Below, in pieces: positions 248 to 14,388 of a stretch of DNA of 14,388 nt (the stretch's first letter is position 1; each line of letters begins with the position of its first letter). The position numbers and the translations under genes were made by a program. Source of the DNA: a virus (taxonomy: Duplodnaviria; Heunggongvirae; Uroviricota; Caudoviricetes); the IMG/VR virus record IMGVR_UViG_2693429700_000020. One strand, written 5' to 3'. Under the pieces are notes generated by a model. That model saw only the letters and a list, made by a program, of their open reading frames with translations. It made no database searches and was not told where the DNA came from.

Positions 248-1723
248 TTAAGCATACGGGTCATAATCTGTGATGGCCTTGCCTTGCTGGTTCTGCTGCC
301 CAGGAATTCGCAGACGCTTCGACACAGGGAACGCAAACGTCAGCAGTAGCGCATCGCCTTTACCCGGCGAACGCCCAAGACGCTCTTTGATATCTTCCTT
401 CGGTTCGATAACGATTTTACCGTCCACACGAACTTTGTACTCTGCCGCCGACAGGTCGTCTGCTGTTTCCTGGTCATCCAGCATGCCGCCCAGCCTCAGC
501 CATGTCTTGCATGAATTGAACATCTCCCCACGCTTGTTGAGCATCTGCGGGTCAGTAGACGCGCCACCGAACGGAACAAGTTGCCATGTACGACCCCATC
601 CGTCACCGATTGACTTCAGACCGGTTCCGTAACCGAAGTCGATGAACACCGCGTCAGCCTGGTACTGGTCTTCAAAGTCAGCGATACGCTTCGCCATAAT
701 CAGATCGTCGGTGGTCTTGTTACCAGTCCATAGCACCTTACTGTGCAGCCCCTGCCGCAGGTATATCACCGCGTCATCAACGCCTGAGTATGCCGGGTCA
801 ACGCCGATTATCACCGGAGCATGTGCAACCTGCGCAGCGGTTACCACCCGTTTCATTGCCTCATCAGTAAGACCGGTAGGGATAAACTGCAATTCAGATG
901 CATCAGGGAATATGCCGCGCACACGGATTTTAACGAAGTCGCTGTCTTCCCCGTAGTCATCAACCCATTTCAGCAACTGCTGTTTGTTAGTGCCTTCCAC
1001 CGTCCGGCTGTCAATCTGCGCACACTTCCAGCGGTGTTTGTACTTGCGGAAACATTCACGGAAACGCCCGGTGTTACGCGTCGGGTTCCCGAACGCCACC
1101 CAGATGATTTCGGTGTCTTCGTCCGTCAGCGCACCCTCTGCTACCTCCCACACCAGATCGGCAATGTTCGACGCTTCATCGAATACCACGATGATGCGTT
1201 TGCGCTCGTTGTGTAGTCCGGCGAATGCCTCAGTGTTGTGCTCAGACCAGGGGATTGCGTCAGCTCGCCACCGCTTGTCGTGCCCAGGATCATTGCTGTA
1301 CATCGCGGTAGCGGTACAGGTAAACCAGTCTTTCGTGATAGCAAGGTTCGACCACTTGATAATTTCCGGCCAGGTCTTCGTTCGTAGCTGGTTGTCGGTG
1401 TTGGCGGTCACCACGACCTTACAATCCTCGCAGGTGGACATGCCCCAGTTGATCAGCATTGAGATGAATGCGGATTTACCAATACCGTGACCAGAAGCGC
1501 GTGCCAGCATAAGCGGCTGATAGCGCGTCTCTGGATTCTGCAGGTGATCACGTATCTCTCGGAACGCATCAGCCTGCCACTGACGTGGGCCGGTGGCATG
1601 TGCCAGTTCAGTCCCCTCTTCCCCCCACGGGAACGCATAGAGAGCATAGCCAAGCGGATCGTGAGTGAACCCTGCAATATCCTCGATCAACTGCTCTTCA
1701 GGAGATAACGCTGTATCTGTCAC
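248..1723 (-). CDS. terL: Phage terminase large subunit
   Basis: 491-aa ORF with a Walker A-like ARASGHGIGKS motif and terminase ATPase/nuclease-like layout; GTG start at 1723..1721 overlaps the terS stop (GTGA) and has an AGGATGG ribosome-binding site. Confidence 0.88.
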   Translation of the reverse strand: MTDTALSPEEQLIEDIAGFTHDPLGYALYAFPWGEEGTELAHATGPRQWQADAFREIRDHLQNPETRYQPLMLARASGHGIGKSAFISMLINWGMSTCEDCKVVVTANTDNQLRTKTWPEIIKWSNLAITKDWFTCTATAMYSNDPGHDKRWRADAIPWSEHNTEAFAGLHNERKRIIVVFDEASNIADLVWEVAEGALTDEDTEIIWVAFGNPTRNTGRFRECFRKYKHRWKCAQIDSRTVEGTNKQQLLKWVDDYGEDSDFVKIRVRGIFPDASELQFIPTGLTDEAMKRVVTAAQVAHAPVIIGVDPAYSGVDDAVIYLRQGLHSKVLWTGNKTTDDLIMAKRIADFEDQYQADAVFIDFGYGTGLKSIGDGWGRTWQLVPFGGASTDPQMLNKRGEMFNSCKTWLRLGGMLDDQETADDLSAAEYKVRVDGKIVIEPKEDIKERLGRSPGKGDALLLTFAFPVSKRLRIPGQQNQQGKAITDYDPYA

Positions 1724-2316
1724 TGATTACCATCCTGACGTTCTTTGAGTCGCTTCCTGGCTGCCGCTATGCGATCAGCAATTGTCACATTCACATTAAC
1801 ATCCAGGCGTTCTTTGAACGCGTTGACATCAACATGCTTACCAATCAGCTCAAGGTTCTTCACCTTGTCAGGCCATTTAATTTTTTTGAGGATTGTCTCT
1901 ATCGAATCCTCGTTCATGTTCATGATGGTCGATGACAGATCAAAGCCACTAAGCGTAGTGCGCCAGATTTTCGGCCACTCACGGATAGGTTTAAGGCTCC
2001 CATCGTCGTTGAGGATGTCGATCACGTCCATCTGGTCGATCTCCACTAGGCGCATGAGAACGTAATCAGCACTGACGCGCATTCGTTTGTTGCGCTCCTC
2101 CATCAACTCGGCAATCCGTTTTTGAATGCGTTCATCGCGCATCATGACACTGGCTTTAACTGCCGCTGTATTTGGGGAGAATCCTGCGTTAATCGCTGCC
2201 TGAGTCTGGTTTTCAGGCGTTTTGATGTATGACTGGCAATAAGCCTCCTGCATTGCTGTGAGCGGCTTAAATTGCGTTGATTTGCGTTTATAGGTTTTAG
2301 GTTCAGCAGGCATCAT
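1720..2316 (-). CDS. terS: Phage terminase small subunit (Terminase_2-like)
   Basis: Translation from the ATG pair at 2316/2313 (MMPAEPKTYKRK...LTAMQEAYCQSYIKTPENQTQAAINAGFSPNTAAVKASVMMRDERIQKRIAELMEE) matches the recalled small-terminase pattern. The 26 codons upstream in the track ORF are the translation of operator repeats and are not believed to be coding. GGTGG ribosome-binding site before the ATG. Confidence 0.8.
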   Translation of the reverse strand: MMPAEPKTYKRKSTQFKPLTAMQEAYCQSYIKTPENQTQAAINAGFSPNTAAVKASVMMRDERIQKRIAELMEERNKRMRVSADYVLMRLVEIDQMDVIDILNDDGSLKPIREWPKIWRTTLSGFDLSSTIMNMNEDSIETILKKIKWPDKVKNLELIGKHVDVNAFKERLDVNVNVTIADRIAAARKRLKERQDGNQ

Positions 2317-2348
2317 AACCACCGTGGTAATAGTTACCGTTGTGGTAA
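2316..2348. promoter_or_regulatory. Two adjacent operator-like palindromes (TAACC-accgt-GGTAA 2316-2330; TTACC-gttgt-GGTAA 2334-2348) abutting the terS start codon
   Basis: Same 15-bp TTACC-N5-GGTAA palindrome as in the immunity region; centres 18 bp apart; the first overlaps the terS ATG. Confidence 0.6.
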
Positions 2349-2354
2349 TAGTAA

Positions 2355-2386
2355 CATGCAAAATAAAGCCGCCATAGTTGGCGGCA
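2355..2386 (-). terminator. Rho-independent terminator after the 2391-2618 ORF, immediately before the terS operator sites
   Basis: Minus-strand reading gives GCCGCCA-acta-TGGCGGC followed by TTTATTTTG. Confidence 0.65.
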
Positions 2387-2390
2387 GTAT

Positions 2391-2618
2391 TCAAAGTCCA
2401 TCAAATTCATCGTAAAAACTCTCGTCAAGATACCCTTCCCATTTACCGCGAATGAAAATTACATCCTCGCCGCAAGGGTGCTGACTGTCGATAACTATAT
2501 CCCTCCTGGCGCAACCATACTTATGCATGAGAAATTTAACCTCTTTCGGAAAATTTGCTGAGTTATCTCTCATATCTTCAAGGTCGTAGCGTATTTTTGG
2601 CATAACACCTCGTGACAT
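2391..2618 (-). CDS. Hypothetical small protein (70-75 aa); start ambiguous between ATG 2618 and ATG 2603
   Basis: The ATG at 2618..2616 sits at the centre of the GTGACATGTCAC palindrome; the ATG at 2603..2601 is preceded by GAGGTG. No family recognised. Confidence 0.45.
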   Translation of the reverse strand: MSRGVMPKIRYDLEDMRDNSANFPKEVKFLMHKYGCARRDIVIDSQHPCGEDVIFIRGKWEGYLDESFYDEFDGL

Positions 2619-2624
2619 GTCACA
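2601..2624. repeat. Copy 2 of the conserved block with the 12-bp perfect palindrome GTGACATGTCAC (2612-2623)
   Basis: CATAACACCTC-GTGACATGTCACA; overlaps the stop codon of the 2620-2958 gene and the first ATG of the 2391-2618 ORF. Confidence 0.8.
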
Positions 2625-2958
2625 CTATTAATTTCGTTTCATGCCAACCTTTGGTCACCCAGCATTGCGAGTCACCATTACACGGGCATGAATTCACAGG
2701 AACTCTCTCGCCGCACTTACCGCAACGTTTTCTGCTGATCGATTTTATACGCCCGCGCACGCGTGCATCATCCTGGCGGATCAGTAACGCTATATACTCA
2801 CCAAATTCGTAAGGCGCACGCCCGGGGCGACGCGTGGCACAGTTACGCTCCAGCATTTCAATTTCCTGAGCATCAAGCACAATTTCCAGCTTACGCACAC
2901 CAGATGCAGCTTGTCTGGCTCTCTGAGCGGCTTTGCGCTCTGATGCTGATTTAGCCAT
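2620..2958 (-). CDS. Hypothetical basic protein with C-terminal Cys cluster (CGKCG...CPCNG...C), possible zinc-ribbon DNA-binding regulator
   Basis: ATG at 2958..2956 (the track ORF begins one codon earlier at TTG 2961); Lys/Arg-rich N-terminus and CxxC / CxC / C motifs. No confident family assignment. Confidence 0.5.
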   Translation of the reverse strand: MAKSASERKAAQRARQAASGVRKLEIVLDAQEIEMLERNCATRRPGRAPYEFGEYIALLIRQDDARVRGRIKSISRKRCGKCGERVPVNSCPCNGDSQCWVTKGWHETKLIV

Positions 2959-3232
2959 CAATATTTACCTTTATCGCGAACACTTTTACCGGTTTATCAC
3001 CGAAGTGGGGGTGTGTGATTGTTTTCACTTCATATCCTCCATACGGAACATCAATTCTGCAACTGGAGTCGTCGCGCTTCGGATATCCCTTTGTGATAAT
3101 CAGGCGGTCATACTCCCGGAACATAATTCGCTTATTCCAGTAGTCATTACACAGGCGATACTCCTCGGTTTTCTCGCCACGAATCATGGCATCGAAGTAT
3201 TCACCTTTTACGGCAAGTTGCAGGTTAGCCAC
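2951..3232 (-). CDS. ASCH/PUA-like domain protein (DUF3850-like)
   Basis: GTG start at 3232 preceded by AGGAGG; N-terminal LQLAVKGEYFDAMIRGEKTEEYR resembles the ASCH signature as I recall it. Confidence 0.5.
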   Translation of the reverse strand: MANLQLAVKGEYFDAMIRGEKTEEYRLCNDYWNKRIMFREYDRLIITKGYPKRDDSSCRIDVPYGGYEVKTITHPHFGDKPVKVFAIKVNIDG

Positions 3233-3509
3233 GACCTTCCTCCTTTGGCTTGTGAATTTGTATCGTCATGCCGCTTTGAGTGGTGACTACAATGACAGAA
3301 CCAGGCTGAAGGCTGTTAAGATTGAATGCTTCGTAAAACGAATCCAATGCCAGTGCTTTTTTATTCTTTCGGTTCCACCAACGCCATCCCTTGCTACAGG
3401 CTACACTGACAATCCACTGCCCACTCCTGTAAGCCATATAAAACCAGATGAGCAAAACCTGAAGGAAGGCCATCCAGTCAATAATCGTATATTTCGCGAA
3501 GGAGTCCAT
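3225..3509 (-). CDS. Small predicted membrane protein (about 94 aa)
   Basis: ATG at 3509..3507 overlaps the stop of the upstream gene (ATGA-type coupling); hydrophobic segment IIDWMAFLQVLLIWFYMAY. The track ORF 3225-3656 extends further upstream in-frame, but that extension overlaps the preceding gene. Confidence 0.5.
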   Translation of the reverse strand: MDSFAKYTIIDWMAFLQVLLIWFYMAYRSGQWIVSVACSKGWRWWNRKNKKALALDSFYEAFNLNSLQPGSVIVVTTQSGMTIQIHKPKEEGRG

Positions 3510-4309
3510 CAATTCACCTCCTGCGGCGGTTCTGGTAGCGGCATCCAGAACAAGACGTTCCCTAACCACGATAAAGTGCCGTCGCTCAACTCCACGTATT
3601 CCCCTTGTACCTGTCCTGCCATATACTCGCCGTGCTTTGAATAAATTAAAATCCAATCATCTTGAGCGGGCATTCGCTCACTACAGCTTATCCAACCATC
3701 CTGAGTTACCGGAGAGTTGCCATTTACATCGAAGTTTGGCTCTGCGTCCTGAACCAGGAGGATGTAACCATTCTTGGCAGTATCAAGTTCTAACGCCTCG
3801 GTGACGGTGCCGAAATAGCGATTACCTAAATCAGCATCACAAGTGCTTACATCAATGGAAACTTCCATGCCTTCGATTAATTCTGGCAAGTTGTAAGTTT
3901 GGCTTACAGGTTGGCTACCCTGACGCATGGCAGCGTGGCAGGCATCCTCTACGCCCTTAACTGCATCTGCGCAGTAGTTATAGCGATTGCATTCCACTAA
4001 TTTCTGCTTGAAGTTTTCAATTGCTAACTCGATTTCATCCGGCACTACCGGCTCTGGTTGGATAGTGACGTTGGCAAAGGCAGCACGCAAACCGGCCTTA
4101 ATTTCCTCTACTTCATCAGCGCCTAGCGATGAATCTGACAATGCGTGATGGAATGCGTATGCCATGTCGTCGTTTACTGCAACCGGCTCTGCTTCCAGCG
4201 ACGCCAGAGCAATTTCATAAGCACGACGCTCAATATTGTCTCGCACGTCCAGGCTGCCTATGCGCTCTTTGATTTCTTTAATCAGTTCTTTGTCGGTAAA
4301 AGTGGTCAT
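3509..4309 (-). CDS. Ea22-like N-terminal region fused to a DUF551-like C-terminal domain
   Basis: ATG at 4309 with AGGAG ribosome-binding site; N-terminus shares the SLEAEPV motif with the 4585-5061 paralog; C-terminus has WISCSERMP...WMPLPEPP, typical of DUF551 prophage proteins as recalled. Confidence 0.6.
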   Translation of the reverse strand: MTTFTDKELIKEIKERIGSLDVRDNIERRAYEIALASLEAEPVAVNDDMAYAFHHALSDSSLGADEVEEIKAGLRAAFANVTIQPEPVVPDEIELAIENFKQKLVECNRYNYCADAVKGVEDACHAAMRQGSQPVSQTYNLPELIEGMEVSIDVSTCDADLGNRYFGTVTEALELDTAKNGYILLVQDAEPNFDVNGNSPVTQDGWISCSERMPAQDDWILIYSKHGEYMAGQVQGEYVELSDGTLSWLGNVLFWMPLPEPPQEVN

Positions 4310-4319
4310 GTGTTACTCC

Positions 4320-4583
4320 TTAACCCGCAGTGCTTTCAACTGACGAGGGGAATAAAATCGTTTCATCAAATCCGGCATTCATATCATGAACAGCAGCACA
4401 CCAATCCATTGACGAACGATTATCAAGAGCCTCCATGATTTCATCCATGCGGCGTAGGTCATACAGGTAAATGTTTTTATCGCCAATGGTGTAAAAGCCA
4501 ATTTTTTTCGGCGATGGACAGCGATCAAGAACGTCCTGTAAGTCGTTCAACCATGCCCGTTCTTTTTTTGTCAAAGTTGTCAT
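4320..4583 (-). CDS. Hypothetical phage protein (87 aa)
   Basis: ATG at 4583 with AGGAGAG ribosome-binding site; tightly packed in the operon; no family recognised. Confidence 0.5.
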   Translation of the reverse strand: MTTLTKKERAWLNDLQDVLDRCPSPKKIGFYTIGDKNIYLYDLRRMDEIMEALDNRSSMDWCAAVHDMNAGFDETILFPSSVESTAG

Positions 4584-4584
4584 A

Positions 4585-5061
4585 TCACTCTCCTTTGATG
4601 CCTATATTTACAGCCAGGCAAGCTTCTTCGAGCACCCAGTCAACAGCGTCTTTCCACGCACCAGTCCCAACTGGCGGATTCTCATTTTTTACCTGCTCAT
4701 AAAAACGCACCGCTTTAACCAGTCCTTCAGGCACTACAGGTACTGGCAAGGCAGCGTGACAGTAGAGTGGCATAGTTTTGTACAGGGGGGCGCCAGGACT
4801 TCCGTCAACCTGATTCCATTCTTCAACCCAGGCATCAACAACCGCTTTGCTGGTTGATACATGTTCTTCTGAATCTACATTTTGTCCTGATATACAGAAC
4901 ATAACTGGCTCTGCTTCCAGTGATGCGTCCAATACATCAAGCAATGCCAGTACAACCTCCGGCGTAGCCGCAGCATGAAAAGCCTGTAGGTTCTGCCACG
5001 TCGTCTCCTCCTTCGCGACCTCTGCCGCCTCTCGCAGTGCCTGATAGTCAATCTTGCTCAC
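4585..5061 (-). CDS. Ead/Ea22-like family protein
   Basis: GTG start at 5061 with AGGAGG ribosome-binding site; N-terminus MSKIDYQALREAAE... and PEVVLALLDVLD match the recalled Ead/Ea22-like pattern. Confidence 0.6.
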   Translation of the reverse strand: MSKIDYQALREAAEVAKEETTWQNLQAFHAAATPEVVLALLDVLDASLEAEPVMFCISGQNVDSEEHVSTSKAVVDAWVEEWNQVDGSPGAPLYKTMPLYCHAALPVPVVPEGLVKAVRFYEQVKNENPPVGTGAWKDAVDWVLEEACLAVNIGIKGE

Positions 5062-5302
5062 TGGTTGCCTCCTGCTTTTCTGCCTTCAACACCATGCGAG
5101 AACCATCATCCAGCTCCCACGCGATCTCACCACCTTCAGCCATGACCAGTCGCCACACCAATTGAGCAGCCTCATTGGTAACATCACGACCTGGATCATT
5201 GCCAACGCGCATACGTCCACCTTCAACATCGCGCATTTTTGCCAGCATGATAGTTTTTGATAGCGGTGAAAAACCAAGCTGTAGTCGTGCTGAATTACTC
5301 AC
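5048..5302 (-). CDS. Hypothetical phage protein (84 aa)
   Basis: GTG start at 5302 with the same AGGAGGCAACCAGTGAG initiation region as the 4585-5061 gene; overlaps the neighbouring stop. Confidence 0.45.
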   Translation of the reverse strand: MSNSARLQLGFSPLSKTIMLAKMRDVEGGRMRVGNDPGRDVTNEAAQLVWRLVMAEGGEIAWELDDGSRMVLKAEKQEATSEQD

Positions 5303-5832
5303 TGGTTGCCTCCTTTGCGAAGCTCAGCGGCGAAGGCTACTGCGTGATCATGATGTTCAAGTGTGTATGCGCACTCAGCAAACATCTCCACGCCCTGCGC
5401 TCGTACTTCAGCCAGGAAAGCGTCGGTGGCTGGGGTGTCTGATTGCAGAGACTTTGCGCGATAGTCATTCCACCCTCTTGCATACATGGGATTAACTTGC
5501 ACTCCATCTTTTACGCAATATGCCTGCCCTCCACGGTTGATAACCTTGATTTCGTCCATAGCGCCAGACTTCAGCCCCGCATTCTCCGCCGCCAGCGCTG
5601 AAAACTTCTCGTGTGCCAACTTAACAGCTGCATCAGCCTGCTTAATTGACTCAATCGCTTTCTGCTGGTCTTCGGCCAGCGCATTAGCACGCACCAGTTG
5701 CACTTCCAGTTGCGTTGCCAAATCGCTGATCAGCTTTGCCACACTACGCATATCAACGGCACCACATTCTGCTTTCAGTTCCGAAGCCATCTCATGCCCG
5801 GCGGAAACTAACCCTTTGATATTACTTTCCAT
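5299..5832 (-). CDS. Coiled-coil phage protein, possibly Ea22-like
   Basis: ATG at 5832 with GAGGG ribosome-binding site; Ala/Glu/Lys-rich helical N-terminal half plus a globular C-terminal half. Confidence 0.45.
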   Translation of the reverse strand: MESNIKGLVSAGHEMASELKAECGAVDMRSVAKLISDLATQLEVQLVRANALAEDQQKAIESIKQADAAVKLAHEKFSALAAENAGLKSGAMDEIKVINRGGQAYCVKDGVQVNPMYARGWNDYRAKSLQSDTPATDAFLAEVRAQGVEMFAECAYTLEHHDHAVAFAAELRKGGNQ

Positions 5833-5893: not shown

Positions 5894-6238
5894 TCAGAAC
5901 TCTTCGATGTTCCAGCCACCACCTGCTTTCTTTGGTTTAACCGTTACCCCGATGATTCGGAACGGATATTGATCTGCGGCGACTTTGGTTTTCACCCTGG
6001 CGTCGTCGGTCCAGAAACCTTTCACTTCGTGCAGTTCCATCTCGCCGGTGGCGAGCATCACAGCAAAATCGGGCGTATAGAACGTGTTGTCAGCTAACCG
6101 CAGCTTGAGACCCTCGAATCGATACCAGGCGATTTCCCCTGCACGTTTACGCTGCTCAAGGTGCTGGCAATACGCAGATTCTGTTTTGTTCATCTGGCCT
6201 GTTTTGAGTCGACCAAGAGCCTGTATCTGTTTTCTCAT
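5894..6238 (-). CDS. DUF1064-like protein (PD-(D/E)xK-like fold)
   Basis: ATG at 6238; motifs TPDF ... ELHEVKG fit the DUF1064 pattern as recalled; first gene after the internal operator-flanked promoter. Confidence 0.55.
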   Translation of the reverse strand: MRKQIQALGRLKTGQMNKTESAYCQHLEQRKRAGEIAWYRFEGLKLRLADNTFYTPDFAVMLATGEMELHEVKGFWTDDARVKTKVAADQYPFRIIGVTVKPKKAGGGWNIEEF

Positions 6239-6355: not shown

Positions 6356-7141
6356 TTACTTGATAAATCCTGCCGCCTTTCCCCGCCTGTATTCCTCCAT
6401 CAGCCACTGTGCCGGTGTTATTCCACCCAGGGTGGCGGCGTTAGGCATGCACCCGAAACTTCGCCCTGGCGGGTGGTAAACGTCTCTCCCTGTGTCCGGA
6501 GGCGTACTCATGGGTTCTGGCTTTGCCTGTATGCTGATCACCGGATCGGGTATCTGCTGTCCGGAAGCCACCTTTTTCGCCCAATCATCGAGCAACCTGC
6601 GCGCGTGTTTCTCAACCTCAATCTCGCTAAGCTGGCGCTGATACATTGCGCGGCGGGTATCACATACAACCCAGTACATAACCGGATGCCGCCACGGGAA
6701 TCTTTCGGGACCGCCAGGATATAAACTTTTTTCCTTGCTGTACCGGTGAAACTCCGCCATCACATCGTCAATGGTGACACCAAGAACCATCTTGCTGTCT
6801 TTGCACCACTTGATAAATTGCCCAGGCGACGGCCAGAACGGAGATTCACTGGCGCGGGCGTGGCGCATACCAGCAGAAACCTGTTCACGGGTTCGGATCC
6901 CACCTTCGGCAAACGCAGCAATCCACTGCTGTTTTGCAGCGACTTCCTGCTCTGGCGTCTTCAGGTTGGTTACCACTGCCGCCGGAAACAGTTGTTTCAG
7001 CTGTTTGAAAAGGGCATCAACAAGCCTCTCTGCTGACATGTTCACCACATTGTCATTGTTGACGTACTGATGCTCATAACCTGACATGCGAGAAAGGGCT
7101 TCTCCGTCACGGTTTTGTATCGCGGTAAAAACGTTGTTCAC
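6356..7141 (-). CDS. Lambda P-like replication protein (helicase loader)
   Basis: KQQWIAAFAEGGIRTREQVSAGMRHARASESPFWPSPGQFIKWC parallels the lambda P segment RRQWVLAFRENGITTMEQVNAGMRVARRQNRPFLPSPGQFVAWC (recalled). Likely GTG start at 7141 with GGGAGGA ribosome-binding site, overlapping the O-like stop (GTGA). Confidence 0.85.
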   Translation of the reverse strand: MNNVFTAIQNRDGEALSRMSGYEHQYVNNDNVVNMSAERLVDALFKQLKQLFPAAVVTNLKTPEQEVAAKQQWIAAFAEGGIRTREQVSAGMRHARASESPFWPSPGQFIKWCKDSKMVLGVTIDDVMAEFHRYSKEKSLYPGGPERFPWRHPVMYWVVCDTRRAMYQRQLSEIEVEKHARRLLDDWAKKVASGQQIPDPVISIQAKPEPMSTPPDTGRDVYHPPGRSFGCMPNAATLGGITPAQWLMEEYRRGKAAGFIK

Positions 7142-7953
7142 AAGAAATCCTCCCACGCTTCAGGGCTGTTCCAGTGCGGAACGTTGTTATCAGGTAATGT
7201 TGATTGCTTCTGTCTGCTAATCTGCAGCCGCCTTGCCAGCTTCTGCTCCCACTGTGCCTGATGGTATGCCTTACCCTCAGCCATCCAGTAAATTCTGAAT
7301 TCTGCAAGTTCCTGTGCCGTTGGCAGACTGTCCAGGTAGATTCCCTGCAATGAGCTTTTCCGAAGAAAGTCATCTGATGGTTGCCATTGTTCATGCATGA
7401 CAAATTTGCCTAATTGCCCTGGCCCACCAGGAGGAACAAAGTTATTCATCACGGCGTTGTTTGCGCCGGGGTCATGAGGCACAGAATCCCCGGTTTTTGT
7501 CCTGCTCTCCCTCTCTTGGTTAAATGACTGGTTATATGACTGGTTCTGGATCCCGTTTTTGGGATCATTCAACATCCCGTTTTTGGGATCATTCAACATC
7601 CCGTTTTTGGGTATATTCCCGTTTTCGGGAACATTACCGTTTTCGGGTTCATTACACCCTTCCCGGTTGCCTTTAATGTTCCCGTTTTTGGTTATATTAA
7701 GAGAGAAAACCCGCACTCTTTTCGTCGCTCCCTTTCTCTCTCCGGTATCTGAAATAAGCCCCATTTTCATGAGCGATATAAGCCCGGACTGCACGGTTTT
7801 TTTATTCAGGCAAGTGTCTTTAACGAGGCGTTCTATGCTGGGGTAGCAGAGGTTATATTCATCGGCTCTGTCAGCCATCGAGAGCAGTATGAGCTTTAAT
7901 GATGAGCTACCTGGGTCTGTCTCCCAGGCCCAATCTGTTGCATGTCTGCTCAT
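7138..7953 (-). CDS. Replication initiator (O-like): N-terminal helix-turn-helix domain, repeat-encoded low-complexity linker, C-terminal domain
   Basis: ATG at 7953 with GGAG ribosome-binding site; sits directly upstream of the P-like gene; contains the iteron array, as lambda O contains ori. Confidence 0.7.
   Translation of the reverse strand: MSRHATDWAWETDPGSSSLKLILLSMADRADEYNLCYPSIERLVKDTCLNKKTVQSGLISLMKMGLISDTGERKGATKRVRVFSLNITKNGNIKGNREGCNEPENGNVPENGNIPKNGMLNDPKNGMLNDPKNGIQNQSYNQSFNQERESRTKTGDSVPHDPGANNAVMNNFVPPGGPGQLGKFVMHEQWQPSDDFLRKSSLQGIYLDSLPTAQELAEFRIYWMAEGKAYHQAQWEQKLARRLQISRQKQSTLPDNNVPHWNSPEAWEDFL
7552..7692. repeat. Iteron-like direct repeats (candidate replication origin) inside the O-like gene
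   Basis: CCCGTTTT(T/C)GGG core at 7552, 7576, 7600, 7618, about 7636 and 7681 (periods 24, 24, 18, 18); two exact 24-bp units CCCGTTTTTGGGATCATTCAACAT; a second short repeat ATGACTGGTT at 7525 and 7537. Confidence 0.7.
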
Positions 7954-8319: not shown

Positions 8320-8550
8320 TCATGAGTAGAAGAAGTATGCCAGTTCTGCTTTTGAGCGCAGCCATTGTCTTGTTTTACAGGCTTTAAAAAGCCCATTCAT
8401 CAATACTTTACCTGGCATTTTGCGCTTACCTGTTAAGTGAGTCTGGATATAGTGACTCGTCGTTCCGGCTTCCTGTGCGAAGGCTTCACGCTCATCCGGA
8501 GTAAGTGCAAGCCAGTGCTTTTTGAAATCGAAATGTCCGTTATCGCTCAT
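8320..8550 (-). CDS. Cro-like small helix-turn-helix DNA-binding protein
   Basis: 76 aa; first gene of the minus-strand operon, divergent from the repressor; candidate HTH at AFAQEAGTTSHYIQTHLTGKR. Confidence 0.5.
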   Translation of the reverse strand: MSDNGHFDFKKHWLALTPDEREAFAQEAGTTSHYIQTHLTGKRKMPGKVLMNGLFKACKTRQWLRSKAELAYFFYS

Positions 8551-8704: not shown

Positions 8705-9289
8705 ATGAAAAGTATCCAGGACGTCCGCAGGCAAAATCTCAACGACTTGATCGACCGTGAATTCAATGGTGTTCAGACGCGGATGGCAGAAAAACTTGGA
8801 ACTCAGGCAAATCTGGTAAACCGCTGGGCTCTTGGCAAGAAGGTTATCGGCGACCAGGTTGCGCGAAAAATTGAAGCTGCCGCCAATAAACCCCGTAACT
8901 GGCTTGATATCGATCGCTCGCTTTCTCAGGAGGGGTTTCAGCCTGTCGGCCCAAGCGACATTGGTCAGCTGGCGGCTCACAACCTGGAACGCTGGATGAG
9001 CGAAAGCCGCGACCTTTCAACACAGGGAAAACTTCACCGCGCATCCGGCGTCGCCCAGGTGACAATCAGCCGCCTGTTAAACAATGAGGTCAGTGTTTCC
9101 ATTTCCACCCTGGAGAATGTTGCATCCGCATTCGGGCGTCACGGATATGAACTACTGATTCACCCGCATGACCCTGCAACTATCAACTATGACCGCTCGC
9201 GCTACGCATTGTTACCCGAAACCGAGAAAGCAAAGATCGAAAGTTACATTGAATTTGTCATCAACCAGAACGAAAAAAACAAACAATAA
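8705..9289 (+). CDS. Phage repressor (CI-like role) with two XRE-type helix-turn-helix domains and no S24 peptidase domain
   Basis: 194 aa; HTH-like segments QTRMAEKLGTQANLVNRW and LHRASGVAQVTISRLLNN; lies between the two operator regions like lambda cI; weak ribosome-binding site. Confidence 0.7.
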   Translation: MKSIQDVRRQNLNDLIDREFNGVQTRMAEKLGTQANLVNRWALGKKVIGDQVARKIEAAANKPRNWLDIDRSLSQEGFQPVGPSDIGQLAAHNLERWMSESRDLSTQGKLHRASGVAQVTISRLLNNEVSVSISTLENVASAFGRHGYELLIHPHDPATINYDRSRYALLPETEKAKIESYIEFVINQNEKNKQ

Positions 9290-9597: not shown

Positions 9598-9897
9598 ATG
9601 AACGTTAATCAGCAGAAAAATCTTCAAAAAATCATGCTGGCATTCGACAAGGACTACCGCCTGTCAGAACAGCTATATGACCGACAAGTTGAACTGATTG
9701 AGAGTATCCGGCTTCACCAACTGGCCTCAACTTTCGACGTTGTAACAGGCAAAGGCGTTCGTCAGGAAGTGCTGGAGGCTGCTAAAGACAGCCCTGAGTT
9801 CGAAGAACTGATGGATGCCTACCGGCGCGAGGCAATGGCAATTATCGCCCGCTGGGATCTGGCTGATCAGCTTGATGGGCAGAGGGACGCGGCATGA
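9598..9897 (+). CDS. Hypothetical early protein (99 aa)
   Basis: ATG at 9598 preceded by GGGAGGG (the track ORF starts at 9583); stop overlaps the exonuclease start (ATGA). No family recognised. Confidence 0.5.
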   Translation: MNVNQQKNLQKIMLAFDKDYRLSEQLYDRQVELIESIRLHQLASTFDVVTGKGVRQEVLEAAKDSPEFEELMDAYRREAMAIIARWDLADQLDGQRDAA

Positions 9898-10715
9898 AGC
9901 CGGGAATTTATTTCGACATCAGCAACGAAGACTACCACGCCGGGGACGGCGTGAGTAAGTCGCAACTGGACATGGTTGCCAAGAATCCGGCGCTTCTTAA
10001 ATGGGTTCAGGCAGCACCAGAAGACGAAGAGAAAAAGTCTGCACTGGATATGGGAACCGCATTGCACTGTCTGCTTCTGGAGCCTGGAGAGTTCGACAAA
10101 CGCTTCATTGTTTCACCGAAATTCGATCGTCGGACGAAACAAGGTAAAGCTGACGAAGAGGCATTTCTTCGTGATGTGGCGGATATGGGGATTACGGTAC
10201 TTGATGCCGAGCAGTGGCGGAAACTGGAGCTGATGCGTGATAGCGCAATGGCTCACCCGGCGGCACGCTGGATGCTGGAAGCACCTGGTTACTGCGAAGC
10301 GTCAATGTACTGGAACGATGAAGAGACTGGTGAGTTGTGCCGAATTCGTCCAGACAAATGGCTGAACGAGCACAACGTGATCGTCGACGTGAAAAAGGTT
10401 GCAGATATGGAGCGTTTTGCACGTCACATCGAGGAATTCCGCTACCACGTGCAGGACGCAATGTACCGCGAAGGCGCAATGAGGGTTACTGGTCAGCCGC
10501 ATGGTTTTTTCTTTCTTGCCGTGAGCGAAAGCATTGATTGTGGTCGGTATCCGGTACGCGTGTTCGAGCTGGATGCGCCGGATGTCGATGCCGGGCACGC
10601 TCTGTTCCGCCGGGATCTGAATACCTATCACGAATGCCGCATCAACGATGAATGGGGCGGAGTGGAAATTATTAAACGTCCTGACTGGGCACGTAAACAG
10701 GATATGTATGTATGA
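9894..10715 (+). CDS. PD-(D/E)xK exonuclease, RecE C-terminal-domain-like (exodeoxyribonuclease VIII family)
   Basis: 273 aa; N-terminus MKPGIYFDISNEDYHAGDGVSKSQL and RIRPD ... IVDVKK catalytic motifs match the recalled RecE nuclease-domain pattern; translationally coupled to the annealing-protein gene. Confidence 0.7.
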   Translation: MKPGIYFDISNEDYHAGDGVSKSQLDMVAKNPALLKWVQAAPEDEEKKSALDMGTALHCLLLEPGEFDKRFIVSPKFDRRTKQGKADEEAFLRDVADMGITVLDAEQWRKLELMRDSAMAHPAARWMLEAPGYCEASMYWNDEETGELCRIRPDKWLNEHNVIVDVKKVADMERFARHIEEFRYHVQDAMYREGAMRVTGQPHGFFFLAVSESIDCGRYPVRVFELDAPDVDAGHALFRRDLNTYHECRINDEWGGVEIIKRPDWARKQDMYV

Positions 10716-11593
10716 GCAATGATATCGCAATCACATCACAACCAGGCGCAACTGTAGGCACTGCTGCGGCAATCTTCAGCCCCGAGGGCATGAATCAACT
10801 GGTGCGTTTCGAGGAGTTGATGTCACAAAGCAAAGCGACTGTACCGAAACATCTTGAAGGCAAACCTGCCGATTGCCTGGCGGTGACCATGCAGGCGGCA
10901 CAGTGGGGAATGAACCCGTTCGCCGTGGCGCAGAAAACGCATGTGGTAAACGGAACGTTAGGCTACGAAGCACAGTTGGTAAACGCGGTCGTATCCTCTT
11001 CCAGCCTGCTGGCGACACGCCTGAATTATCGCTGGAGCGGTGACTGGTCGAATGTTAACGGCAAAACAGATAAATCACCGAATCTGACGGTAACTGTGTC
11101 AGCAGTTCTTAAAGGAGAAGCAGAACCACGTGAGCTTACCATCAGTATGGCGCAAGCCGGAGTGCGTAACTCTCCATTGTGGGAACAGGATCCGCGCCAG
11201 CAGCTCGCCTATCTTTGCACGAAACGATGGGCTCGCCTGCACGCTCCTGATGTACTTCTCGGTGTTTACACCCCTGACGAATTACAGGAAACGGCACCGC
11301 GCGTTGAGCGAGACATTACTCCGCAAATGACTACGGCTGCGGGAATGAACAGTCTGATCAACGCTAAATCAGTGAAAAAGCCTGATGAGCAAACGCGTAA
11401 AGCGGATAGCCGTGAGCCAGAAGAAATGCTGATGGCCTTTACCAGCGCAGCGATGAATTACAGCACTGTCTCCGAACTGGATAAGGCTTACAAATACATT
11501 GCACAAAAACTTTCAGATGATGACGAACTGCTGGCAAAAGCCACCGACGTTTACAGCGTTCGTCGGGAAGAATTAAACGAAACATCTATGTAA
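10712..11593 (+). CDS. RecT/Redbeta-family single-strand annealing protein
   Basis: 293 aa; QWGMNPF ... SPLWEQDPRQQLAYLCTKRWARL parallels the lambda Bet region GPWQSHPKRMLRHKAMIQCARLAF (recalled); sits directly downstream of the exonuclease. Confidence 0.65.
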   Translation: MSNDIAITSQPGATVGTAAAIFSPEGMNQLVRFEELMSQSKATVPKHLEGKPADCLAVTMQAAQWGMNPFAVAQKTHVVNGTLGYEAQLVNAVVSSSSLLATRLNYRWSGDWSNVNGKTDKSPNLTVTVSAVLKGEAEPRELTISMAQAGVRNSPLWEQDPRQQLAYLCTKRWARLHAPDVLLGVYTPDELQETAPRVERDITPQMTTAAGMNSLINAKSVKKPDEQTRKADSREPEEMLMAFTSAAMNYSTVSELDKAYKYIAQKLSDDDELLAKATDVYSVRREELNETSM

Positions 11594-12033: not shown

Positions 12034-12300
12034 ATGAACAAGGTTTCAATGCGCAGTCCGTCAAAGATTGTCGCCGTTACTCCTGCGGCGATAGAGATCG
12101 AAAAACGCGCGATTGAAAGAGAGAAAAAAGGGCAGTTCCGCATTGCCGCTCACCTTTGGCTTCAGTGTATGGATGTTGCTTCTGGTGATGTTGAGCGTGC
12201 AAGGATCGCGGTTCGCAGGGACCAATGTATCACAAAAGGTAACGGCCTTCGCCGTGGCGACTATAGCGGCATAGGATGTTGTGGGGTGGTTTATGACTAA
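12034..12300 (+). CDS. PerC-family transcriptional regulator-like protein
   Basis: RIAAHLWLQCMDVA ... ERARIAVRRDQCIT resembles the PerC signature as recalled; the most likely start is ATG 12049 (AAGG ribosome-binding site); the track ORF begins at 12001. Confidence 0.5.
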   Translation: MNKVSMRSPSKIVAVTPAAIEIEKRAIEREKKGQFRIAAHLWLQCMDVASGDVERARIAVRRDQCITKGNGLRRGDYSGIGCCGVVYD

Positions 12301-12943
12301 GAAATACACACTAATCTATGCAGATCCACCCTGGGCATACCGGGACAAAGCCGCAGATGGTAATCGCGGTGCCGGTTTTAAATATCCAGTTATGAGTGTG
12401 CTGGATATCTGCCGCCTTCCTGTGTGGGATTTGGCCGATGAAAACTGTCTGTTGGCCATGTGGTGGGTGCCAACACAACCACTCGAAGCACTAAAAGTTG
12501 TTGAAGCCTGGGGATTCCGTCTGATGACCATGAAGGGCTTCACGTGGATAAAATGTGGTAGTCGACAACCAGATAAACTGGTTATGGGTATGGGACACAT
12601 GACTCGCGCCAATAGTGAAGATTGCCTGTTTGCAGTTAAGGGAAAACTACCTCCGCGCATTAATGCAGGGATCGTTCAGTCATTTACCGCACCGCGGCTT
12701 GAGCATTCAAGAAAACCAGATATCGTTCGTGAAAAACTTGTGCAATTGTTAGGCGATGTTTCTCGCATTGAACTGTTCGCCCGCCAGTCGTCTCATGGCT
12801 TCGATGTTTGGGGTAATCAGTGCGAAGACCCGGCCGTGCAACTACACCCAGGATACGCGTTGGATATTGGCGGATTAACAAATGCATTCAGCAATGCTCC
12901 TCTGTCACCAACAGACAACCAGGGGCGGGAGCGTGCAGCATGA
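12293..12943 (+). CDS. MT-A70 family DNA N6-adenine methyltransferase, orphan (no restriction partner in the window)
   Basis: ATG at 12293 with GGGGTGG ribosome-binding site; N-terminal YADPPWAY catalytic motif; the track ORF starts at 12281. Confidence 0.85.
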   Translation: MTKKYTLIYADPPWAYRDKAADGNRGAGFKYPVMSVLDICRLPVWDLADENCLLAMWWVPTQPLEALKVVEAWGFRLMTMKGFTWIKCGSRQPDKLVMGMGHMTRANSEDCLFAVKGKLPPRINAGIVQSFTAPRLEHSRKPDIVREKLVQLLGDVSRIELFARQSSHGFDVWGNQCEDPAVQLHPGYALDIGGLTNAFSNAPLSPTDNQGRERAA

Positions 12944-13137: not shown

Positions 13138-14388
13138 TTATTCCCCCGCCATCCACTTCTCAAACTTCGACGGGGAGAACGGAATCAGATCCGTATGCTC
13201 CCCGTTAATCCAGGAATCAATCATATCGGCCCACTGCTGCAACATGTAGGCGCGCTGTCTGGCGTATTCCGCTTTGTTATATACGGCGCGCACACCTTTC
13301 TGCTCATGTGCCAAAGCTTTTTCAATCCAGTCTGAAGGATAACCAGCCTCATGCAACAACGTACTGGCTGTACGGCGCATATCATGTACAGTGAAGTCCT
13401 GAATATGCTCACCATCTTCATTTATTATTTTCACCGTTCTGTCGATCAGAGAGTTCAGCGCGGCATTAGATAATGGCTTCCGGAAATTGTAACGACCAGG
13501 AACCAGATATTCACTTCCACCAGCGCACATCTGCAACCCGACCAATATATCCTGTGCCTGTTTAGGCAGGTAAATAACGTGCGCCCGGCTTCCCTTCATG
13601 CGGTCTGGAGGAATTGTCCATGTCCATTTTTTAAAATCTATTTCATCCCACGATGCATTGGTGAATTCGCCCTTACGAACCATAGTGATAAGCACCAGTT
13701 TTAAAGCCATTTTCATAGTGCCCATAGCACCAATGGCATCCAGCGTGCGGAAGAACAGGCCAATTTCTTCTGGTGTCAGTGTTCGCTCTCGTGGTTTAAA
13801 TATGGCGATAGACGAAGGTTTAATGTCAGCCGCAGGATTAAACAAACCATGACCACGGTCATTGGCGTGACGGTATACGCTACTGATGATCTCCCTGGCC
13901 TGCACTGCTGTTGCCCGGCCACCGCGTTCGACAATCCGGTCACACAAATCACGAACCATCGATGTGGTAATTTCAGCCATCATTTTATTGCCAAGAACCG
14001 GAAGTATGTCCCGGTCGATCACCGCCTGTTTCATTGCGCGGGTACTGTCAGCCAGGATGACGTGTTTCATATAACTGTCGGTATGTACCGCAAACGTCTC
14101 GGCACCACGAATCTTTTTGATACCGTCACGTTTAGCCGCAGCCGGTGACTGGCCTGCTTTAAGCAGCTTCTTTGCAGCAATCAGTTCTTCTCGCGCTTCT
14201 GCCAGGCTGATACCGTCACGCCCATACTGCCCGATTACCAGCGTTTCGCGGCGACCGTTGATACGGTAGTCGTAGCGAAACGAGACCGTGCCTGACGTAA
14301 GCACAGCTACATACAGCCCGTCACGATCGGAGACCTTGTACAGTTTGTCCTGCGGCTTGAGGTTTTTTAATTTTGTATCGGTAAGCAC
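13138..14388 (-). CDS. int: Tyrosine integrase, P4-type (N-terminus runs off the right window edge)
   Basis: 416 aa in window; N-terminal LTDTKLKNLKPQDKLYKVSDRDGLYVAV arm-binding-type region; C-terminal HDMRRTASTLLHEAGYPSDWIEKALAH ... VRAVYNKAEY contains the catalytic H-x-x-R and Tyr. Confidence 0.9.
   Translation of the reverse strand: MLTDTKLKNLKPQDKLYKVSDRDGLYVAVLTSGTVSFRYDYRINGRRETLVIGQYGRDGISLAEAREELIAAKKLLKAGQSPAAAKRDGIKKIRGAETFAVHTDSYMKHVILADSTRAMKQAVIDRDILPVLGNKMMAEITTSMVRDLCDRIVERGGRATAVQAREIISSVYRHANDRGHGLFNPAADIKPSSIAIFKPRERTLTPEEIGLFFRTLDAIGAMGTMKMALKLVLITMVRKGEFTNASWDEIDFKKWTWTIPPDRMKGSRAHVIYLPKQAQDILVGLQMCAGGSEYLVPGRYNFRKPLSNAALNSLIDRTVKIINEDGEHIQDFTVHDMRRTASTLLHEAGYPSDWIEKALAHEQKGVRAVYNKAEYARQRAYMLQQWADMIDSWINGEHTDLIPFSPSKFEKWMAGE

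Follow-up and report, generated by a model that had tools for sequence, protein, structure and literature searches.

Accessory genes of a phiV10-like Escherichia coli prophage are joined at short conserved sequences

The accessory block and its repeats

The stretch of DNA analysed here, the window, comprises the 14,388 nucleotides of the IMG/VR virus record IMGVR_UViG_2693429700_000020 and was identified by its map of open reading frames (ORFs) and by similarity searches as the early region of a phiV10/epsilon15-like (Uetakevirus-type) prophage of Escherichia coli. Between the replication genes (6356-7953, minus strand) and the genes for the small and large terminase subunits (248-2394, minus strand) it carries a block of small accessory ("ea-type") genes (2391-5832, minus strand), which belongs to the early rightward operon and in which two gene starts share an exact repeat of 17 nucleotides. 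From the upstream end, the genes encode a 177-residue protein of the EaE/Oad2 family (5299-5832), an 84-residue DUF7446 protein (5048-5302), a 158-residue Ea22/EaD-like protein (4585-5061), an 87-residue protein (4320-4583) and a 266-residue protein with a C-terminal DUF551 domain (3509-4309), followed by a DUF4752 gene (3225-3509), all on the minus strand. An original prediction, made from the sequence alone, had listed the three larger ORFs, with the small ones interleaved, as a cluster of at least two, possibly three, Ea22-like paralogs; the ORFs themselves are present as described. Neighbouring genes meet in GTGA (5299-5302), overlap by 14 nt (5048-5061), are separated by a single nucleotide (4584) or meet in ATGA (3507-3511), where the ATG of the DUF4752 gene (3507-3509) overlaps the TGA of the 266-residue gene. 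Consensus scans revealed no promoter-like or terminator-like sites inside the block. Since the genes overlap or nearly touch and no such internal site is apparent, the accessory block reads as a single, translationally coupled unit of the early rightward operon.

The 17-mer CTCACTGGTTGCCTCCT is present in two exact copies (5057-5073 and 5298-5314), as had been noted before, and no further copy was found in the window, even when up to three mismatches were allowed. A chance origin of the repeat was rejected, since shuffled sequences had on average 0.02 matches and none of 200 had two or more. With a single mismatch allowed, the repeat is 20 nt long (5054-5073 and 5295-5314). Its coding (minus) strand, AGGAGGCAACCAGTGAG, contains a perfect Shine-Dalgarno (SD) sequence, AGGAGG, then 6 nt and a GTG, which confirms that the repeated block is a ribosome-binding site plus start codon. 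The copy at 5295-5314 comprises the SD and the GTG of the DUF7446 gene together with the codons KGGNQ and the TGA of the 177-residue gene, the stop and the start overlapping as GTGA. The copy at 5054-5073 provides the SD and the GTG of the Ea22-like gene and lies within the last codons of the DUF7446 ORF (...QEATSEQD-stop), that is, in the other frame. The assumption that the repeat heads Ea22-like genes is therefore correct for 5057-5073; the block at 5298-5314 starts the DUF7446 ORF instead. Because the same nucleotides are read in two frames, the 17-mer is conserved at the DNA level and not at the protein level.

The 177-residue protein is similar over its full length to gp27 (Oad2) of phage HK446 (28% identity, E = 1e-10 by BLASTP) and also matches EaE of P22 (E = 1.3e-5); its homologues in phiV10 and in phage vB_EcoP_PAS61 are annotated as eae-like. 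It shares with Oad2 the motifs LAAENAG(L/M)KS and TPATDAFLAEVRAQ as well as the tail QLRKGGNQ-stop with the same 17-mer behind it, but the variable module is not the same and the overall identity is low. No Pfam family matched at E ≤ 0.01; only RapA_C was listed (E = 0.054, 13 bits against 26.8). The protein consists of a near-invariant N-terminal part of about 146 residues, a variable module (residues ~148-166) and the conserved tail AAELRKGGNQ-stop. The same architecture was seen in an alignment of the EaE-like family, in which the ~146 N-terminal residues end in TPATDAFLAEVRAQGV and are followed by a variable module and the tail (F)AAQLRKGGNQ-stop (7-10 residues). At least 10 unrelated modules of 20-70 residues are found at this place, the one in the window being among the shortest, and 22 distinct variable segments were counted between the TPATDAFLAEVRAQGV motif and the LRKGGNQ tail. 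The DNA encoding this motif (5376-5447, minus strand) is conserved and forms the 5' border of the module; starts and ends of high-scoring segment pairs (HSPs) pile up there in 35 loci. An invariant scaffold with a hypervariable module is a pattern typical of arms-race proteins. The AlphaFold2 model of the 177-residue protein (predicted local distance difference test score, pLDDT, 66.3) has an N-terminal helix, a long helix (residues 28-89), a small beta unit and C-terminal helices. In the HK446 locus (L206, ~10400-10545), oad2 ends in ...QLRKGGNQ-stop with the same 17-mer, behind which a 20-codon Ea22-type remnant (VSKIDYQALREIAKHQRLTE-stop) is found.

The 158-residue protein matches Pfam PF13935 (Ead_Ea22; IPR025153) with residues 2-70 (39.1 bits against a cut-off of 27), and the N terminus of lambda Ea22 (VSEINSQALREAAE...) aligns with residues 1-42 only (48% identity, E = 2e-7). 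The likeness to Ea22 is thus limited to the first 42 to 70 residues. The central coiled-coil accounts for over half of Ea22 (PMC10834534); in the 158-residue protein the alignment ends at residue 42 and the ...ERNQQYIKRRDQENEDIALTVGKLRVELE... segment is missing. The protein is built from an Ea22 N-terminal module (residues 1 to ~44), a linker ASLEAEPV, an unrelated C-terminal part and the tail ...GIKGE-stop, and it thereby has the C-terminal K/RGE motif that ends all Ea22 proteins (PMC7093339). No sequence relatives of it were found in the PDB. The 3' boundary of its gene (4581-4599, minus strand) reads ATCAAAGGAGAG-TGA-T-ATG and comprises the codons IKGE, the stop and the start of the next gene. 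The linker is part of a second repeat, which the original prediction had overlooked: positions 4181-4204 and 4903-4926 (minus strand) are identical in 21 of 24 nt and encode ASLEAEPV in frame in the 266-residue and the 158-residue protein, respectively. RNA folds around three junctions of the block were not unusually stable (z-scores -2.0, -0.6 and -1.2), and no Rfam family matched the window at its gathering score.

The 266-residue protein starts with an EaA-type N terminus, MTT(F/I)T...IALASLEAE (residues 1-42, ending in ASLEAEPV), which it shares with "Ea22 b" of phage vB_EcoS-689R5, and continues with a middle part. It ends with a DUF551 domain (PF04448; residues 205-263, nucleotides 3521-3697, E = 8e-12, 46.3 bits against a cut-off of 22), which had been predicted for one member of the cluster, and its C terminus is similar to that of P22 EaA (E = 7e-10). 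Where DUF551 begins, a short stretch of conserved DNA (...DGWISCSERMP...; 3660-3731, minus strand) is a further recurrent homology island: 77 loci have nothing but this stretch in common with the window, and HSP ends pile up there. The 87-residue ORF belongs to phrog_1714, a family without assigned function, and sits where P22 has eaI. Judged by their sequences, the three larger genes are members of three different families (EaE/Oad2-like, EaD/Ea22-like, and EaA-like with DUF551) and not paralogs.

Partners of the junction in other phages

An exact-match scan of the IMG/VR viral contigs detected the 17-mer in at least 120 contigs, and 131 occurrences were analysed. The upstream ORF ends in ...KGGNQ-stop in 92 of them, with the stop overlapping the GTG, and in ...EATSE(Q/R)(D/N)-stop in 34, with the stop 10 nt into the next gene. 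Downstream, the N terminus of Ea22, MS(K/E)I(D/N)YQALRE, is most frequent, and about 10 unrelated genes occur as well, including DUF7446, MSGKRMTN... (p47 of phiV10), MSVTVEKID... and the gene for a 335-residue protein. Single-linkage clustering yields at least 14 classes of upstream genes and at least 14 of downstream genes, which the 17-mer connects in 28 combinations; these numbers undercount the diversity since chimeras merge classes. With one representative per combination, identity was at background right outside the 17-mer except for a few upstream bases (CGCAA).

Because this set had been selected by the 17-mer itself, a second set was built that is independent of the junction and consists of 80 viral loci encoding relatives of DUF7446. 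An exact 17-mer is located on the 5' side of the gene in 44 loci, on the 3' side in 43 and on both sides in 31; in the remaining loci, related variants (for example AAAGGAGCCGCACTATG or CAGGAGGCCGCCCAATGAGC) take its place. When the 80 loci were aligned to the window, the alignments broke off within 5020-5079 for 78 of them and within 5280-5349 for 76. As expected for a boundary sequence, a short block is conserved while both flanks vary, and the points of exchange coincide with the block. The comparison of cassette content across related phages, which had been proposed together with the idea of cassette shuffling at conserved gene starts, thus supports this idea well: the 17-mer is shared, its partners vary, homology breaks at the junctions and modules are swapped there.

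The DUF7446 gene (Pfam PF24233, E = 1.3e-18, 67.1 bits against a cut-off of 24.1) is a cassette bracketed by the two junction copies. Its product has 375 relatives, and those named are all from Enterobacteriaceae or their phages; the AlphaFold model (pLDDT 52.7) was too poor for use. A search with a synthetic query lacking 5074-5314 identified genomes with an empty site, in which an Ea22 start directly follows the EaE-like 3' end seen in the window. In E. coli E100341, the sequence corresponding to 5295-5598 of the window (95.4% identity) abuts that of 5021-5073 (98%), and the overlap is exactly the 20-nt repeat. The same strain (L205, 2038-2469) encodes a 143-residue protein that combines the N terminus of Oad2 (MKQM.LIEMDGFLKGKCIPRDLKVNETNAEYL) with the last 100 residues of the 177-residue protein of the window, and its gene adjoins abc2 in a P22-like prophage remnant. 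An integron-like cassette system was considered and rejected: inverted repeats do not flank the cassette, and apart from the prophage integrase (13138-14388, minus strand) the window encodes no tyrosine recombinase.

The DUF7446 junction arrangement of the window was found in one of 5426 complete E. coli genomes (NZ_CP148401). Between 6400 and 4904, the prophage concerned (L204) matches the window with 99.87% identity; the two sequences part at 4904, where the ASLEAEPV repeat has its edge. In this prophage the Ea22 N terminus runs on into a single Ea22-DUF551 protein of 179 residues. An origin of the window from such a gene by insertion between the ASLEAEPV copies was rejected; the breakpoint fits, but the L204 sequence after the motif differs. 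Phage vB_EcoS-689R5 has a chimera that crosses at the same motif: the N terminus of the 266-residue protein is fused to the middle of the 158-residue protein at ASLEAE(P/A)V, and HSPs between this phage and the window end at 4180-4187.

The end of the Ea22-type genes behaves alike. An invariant 3' end, ATCAAAGGAGAGTGA, was seen in 59 of about 96 genes of this type; after one further base comes the ATG of the next gene, and at least 15 different genes occupy this place. The K/RGE motif was reported to be of unexplained significance (PMC7093339). The arrangement ATCAAAGGAGAGTGA-N-ATG, which contains SD, stop and start, suggests that the motif may be the SD and boundary of whichever gene follows. 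In P22, a direct repeat of 26 nt without mismatch, CAGCCCAATGAGCAACATCGACAAAC, marks the starts of eaD and eaF (4982-5007 and 5338-5363 in the P22 locus L208), and both proteins begin with MSNIDK.

Exchange at the junctions and rival explanations

These observations can be combined into a model. The last codons of an upstream gene would supply the SD for, and overlap the GTG of, the next gene. Since stretches of 17-60 nt recur at these boundaries in many phages that are otherwise unrelated, they could act as homology islands, and the same role could be played by the ASLEAEPV linker inside genes and by the ATCAAAGGAGAGTGA end of Ea22 genes. Whole genes or domains would be swapped in register when homologous recombination takes place at the islands, the agent probably being a phage annealase of the RecT/Red-beta type; RecT is the candidate in this prophage. 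Rad52-like annealases drive mosaic formation where homologies are short and diverged, and phages of the lambda, P22 and epsilon15 types have recent mosaics in common (PMC3945230). We consider it likely (probability roughly 0.7) that the repeat and its anatomy, its distribution, the diversity of its partners, the coincidence of breakpoints with it, the empty site and the chimeras reflect an accessory block whose modules are exchanged by homologous recombination at short conserved junctions. In this model, recombination would be targeted to the junctions, and its products would not just have been selected afterwards.

Several points weigh against this. Conservation within the 17-mer is built into the viral-contig set, which was picked by the exact 17-mer. 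The strictly shared junction has only 17-28 nt, which is at or below the minimum homology of ~30 bp quoted for Red-beta (PMC3945230). The block of ~55-60 nt on the Ea22 side exceeds this value, but this longer block is present only at the copy beside the Ea22 start; the junction on the EaE side, with ~24-28 nt including the LRK codons, is borderline. Random illegitimate recombination together with selection for intact genes can also place breakpoints at gene boundaries. As to the products, the structure models are of low to moderate confidence, and a homologue 54% identical to Oad2 is already inactive on OLD, the protein of the window being just 28% identical.

The junctions could have been kept merely as initiation and coupling signals that are inherited with one flank, with random joints surviving at gene boundaries. 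The perfect SD, the correct spacing and the overlapping stop and start codons in the block are in line with this, as is a core of 17-20 nt that is shorter than the Red-beta figure, and illegitimate recombination is an accepted alternative model (PMC3233612). However, of the 17 positions only some 9 are constrained by SD and start codon, and still none of them varies among 28 partner combinations and two frames; besides, the ASLEAEPV repeat is an intragenic breakpoint without a role in initiation; for these reasons, a pure initiation signal fits less well. Moreover, the empty site overlaps the repeat exactly, and the repeat in P22 is 26 nt long with six codons included. We regard this explanation as rather improbable. 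It is hardly credible that a small mobile element consisting of the DUF7446 gene was inserted here and left the junction copies as its target-site duplication: direct repeats bracket the gene and empty sites exist, but the element has neither a transposase nor terminal or flanking inverted repeats, the same junction joins many other gene pairs without DUF7446, and its 3' copy continues into conserved Ea22 codons. In addition, the variants at the 5' and 3' junctions are combined largely independently of each other: with 44 and 43 exact copies, ~24 loci would be expected to have both, and 31 do.

The original prediction of a tandem array of Ea22 paralogs, which would have arisen by duplication and divergence within this phage, is very unlikely to hold. 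It could draw on the public annotation of several of these proteins as "Ea22 protein", on the match of the 266- and 158-residue proteins to phrog_660 over the same profile span, on the motifs ASLEAEPV and PxPVVP that these two share and on a helix-rich N terminus that all three seem to have, partly according to the models. But when the three proteins were aligned, BLASTP gave E ≥ 0.087 and Smith-Waterman scores against shuffled sequences had Z ≤ 1.9. Only the product of 4585-5061 matches PF13935, the other two giving no match at E ≤ 0.1, and lambda Ea22, which finds the 158-residue protein, matched the 266- and 177-residue proteins with E > 2. Two of the three proteins have, in other words, neither mutual similarity nor a match to the Ea22 profile, an outcome that the prediction itself had said would speak against it. 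NCBIfam gave no meaningful family. The 158- and 177-residue proteins share PHROG families but match non-overlapping parts of the profiles, which is as expected for chimeric families, and each of the three proteins has a different counterpart in P22, with the order kept.

Relation to known phages, possible roles and other features of the window

The order of the block (EaE-like, small gene, EaD/Ea22-like, small gene, EaA-like) is that of eaE-(orf45, eaF)-eaD-eaI-eaA in P22, and the small gene upstream of eaD, eaF, is flanked by the repeated start junction there as DUF7446 is in the window. Common to the window, P22 and lambda are GTG or ATG starts of the form MS(K/E/N)I(D/N) and the K/RGE tails. 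In contrast to both phages, the block of the window is located between the replication genes and the terminase and not beside int/xis and the recombination genes; in contrast to lambda Ea22, the 158-residue protein has neither the coiled-coil segment nor the C-terminal domain of the lambda protein. Genes 46-48 of phiV10 (Uetakevirus) and phage PAS61 have the same backbone and position, flanks of 95-97% nucleotide identity and the order DUF1064 - eae-like - small gene - Ea22-like. The DUF1064 nuclease gene is located at 5894-6238 (minus strand) in the window. In phiV10, p46 and p47 are joined by the same 17-mer, and PAS61 has a one-base variant, AGGAGGCAGCCAGTGAG. Unlike the window, phiV10 has p47 (MSGKRMTN...) in place of DUF7446 and an Ea22 of 232 residues, annotated in the record with DUF550.

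The modular theory of the mosaicism of lambdoid phages is said to go back to Susskind and Botstein, and boundary sequences were reportedly described in HK620 by Clark et al. in 2001. The boundary-sequence model has been summarised since (PMC3233612). The junctions described here resemble the boundary or linker sequences of this model in that short conserved sequences lie between unrelated modules, at gene or domain boundaries and on exchange points. They differ in that the junction doubles as SD and start and is read in two frames by the upstream genes. Ea22 genes are known to be mosaic, with variable C-terminal domains including DUF551 (PMC10834534), and accessory loci of lambdoid phages next to the recombination genes are highly modular (bioRxiv 10.64898/2026.07.10.737580). 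Mosaicism of ea22, modularity of the accessory loci and the boundary-sequence model are therefore already known, and the block illustrates phage mosaicism of a known type clearly but in no unusual way; it refines current understanding and does not change it. The junction set of AGGAGGCAACCAGTGAG, ATCAAAGGAGAGTGA-N-ATG and the ASLEAEPV linker seems to be undescribed in the literature searched. New here are this numbered set, the use of a junction in two frames and a simple explanation for the K/RGE motif of Ea22, as well as the assignments EaE/Oad2, EaD/Ea22 and EaA/DUF551 in a Uetakevirus backbone. A single 17-mer is used in two frames and in dozens of module combinations, with matching empty sites and chimeras.

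Ea22 of lambda and of Stx phages favours lysogeny and is a tetramer with mosaic C-terminal domains, one variant of which has DUF551 (PMC7093339, PMC10834534). Oad2 of HK446 binds and inhibits the OLD nuclease of P2, an activity absent from the 54%-identical homologue (bioRxiv 10.64898/2026.07.10.737580). Because lambda Ea22 is pro-lysogenic and the anti-OLD protein Oad2 is homologous to the 177-residue protein, a role of the block in host interaction, as had been proposed, is plausible. With moderate to low confidence, we suppose that the proteins of the block are expressed early and modulate either host defence or the choice between lysis and lysogeny, and by homology the EaE-like protein may be an inhibitor of an OLD-type nuclease. 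The 177-residue gene is a relative of the newly described anti-OLD gene, which makes the block a place to seek anti-defence genes. One may speculate further, with considerable reserve, that the junctions are more than remnants of common descent and form a selected, shared "linker code" made up of the SD-start junction, the ASLEAEPV linker and the KGE-stop-ATG tail. Lambda-, P22- and epsilon15-like phages would then swap anti-defence or host-modulating genes and domains in register via their own annealases, and the EaE-like gene would provide a scaffold on which exchangeable C-terminal modules are displayed against nucleases of the OLD family. If true, such a linker code would be functionally analogous to integron cassettes but independent of a recombinase.

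Outside the accessory block, a cro-like gene (8320-8550, minus strand), a repressor gene (8705-9289, plus strand) and genes for a YqaJ-type exonuclease and the RecT annealase (9894-11593, plus strand) were recognised, the last two by their ORFs and by the RefSeq names in near-identical prophages. The exonuclease and RecT are the likely agents of exchange at short homologies. The O/DnaT-like replication gene (7138-7953, minus strand) contains adjacent tandem arrays at 7517-7655, with units of 12 nt (2.4 copies), 24 nt (2.6 copies, 100% matches) and 18 nt (3.1 copies); these probably represent the iterons of the origin, comparable to those in lambda O. At the 5' end of the ORF listed for the small terminase subunit (2324-2355), a 14-nt unit is repeated at 18-nt spacing and encodes TITTTVTITT, and the real start of terS may be downstream of it. 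Beside the excisionase-like gene, a 220-residue ORF (12281-12943) has a DPPW motif in its translation and looks like an MT-A70-type DNA methyltransferase.

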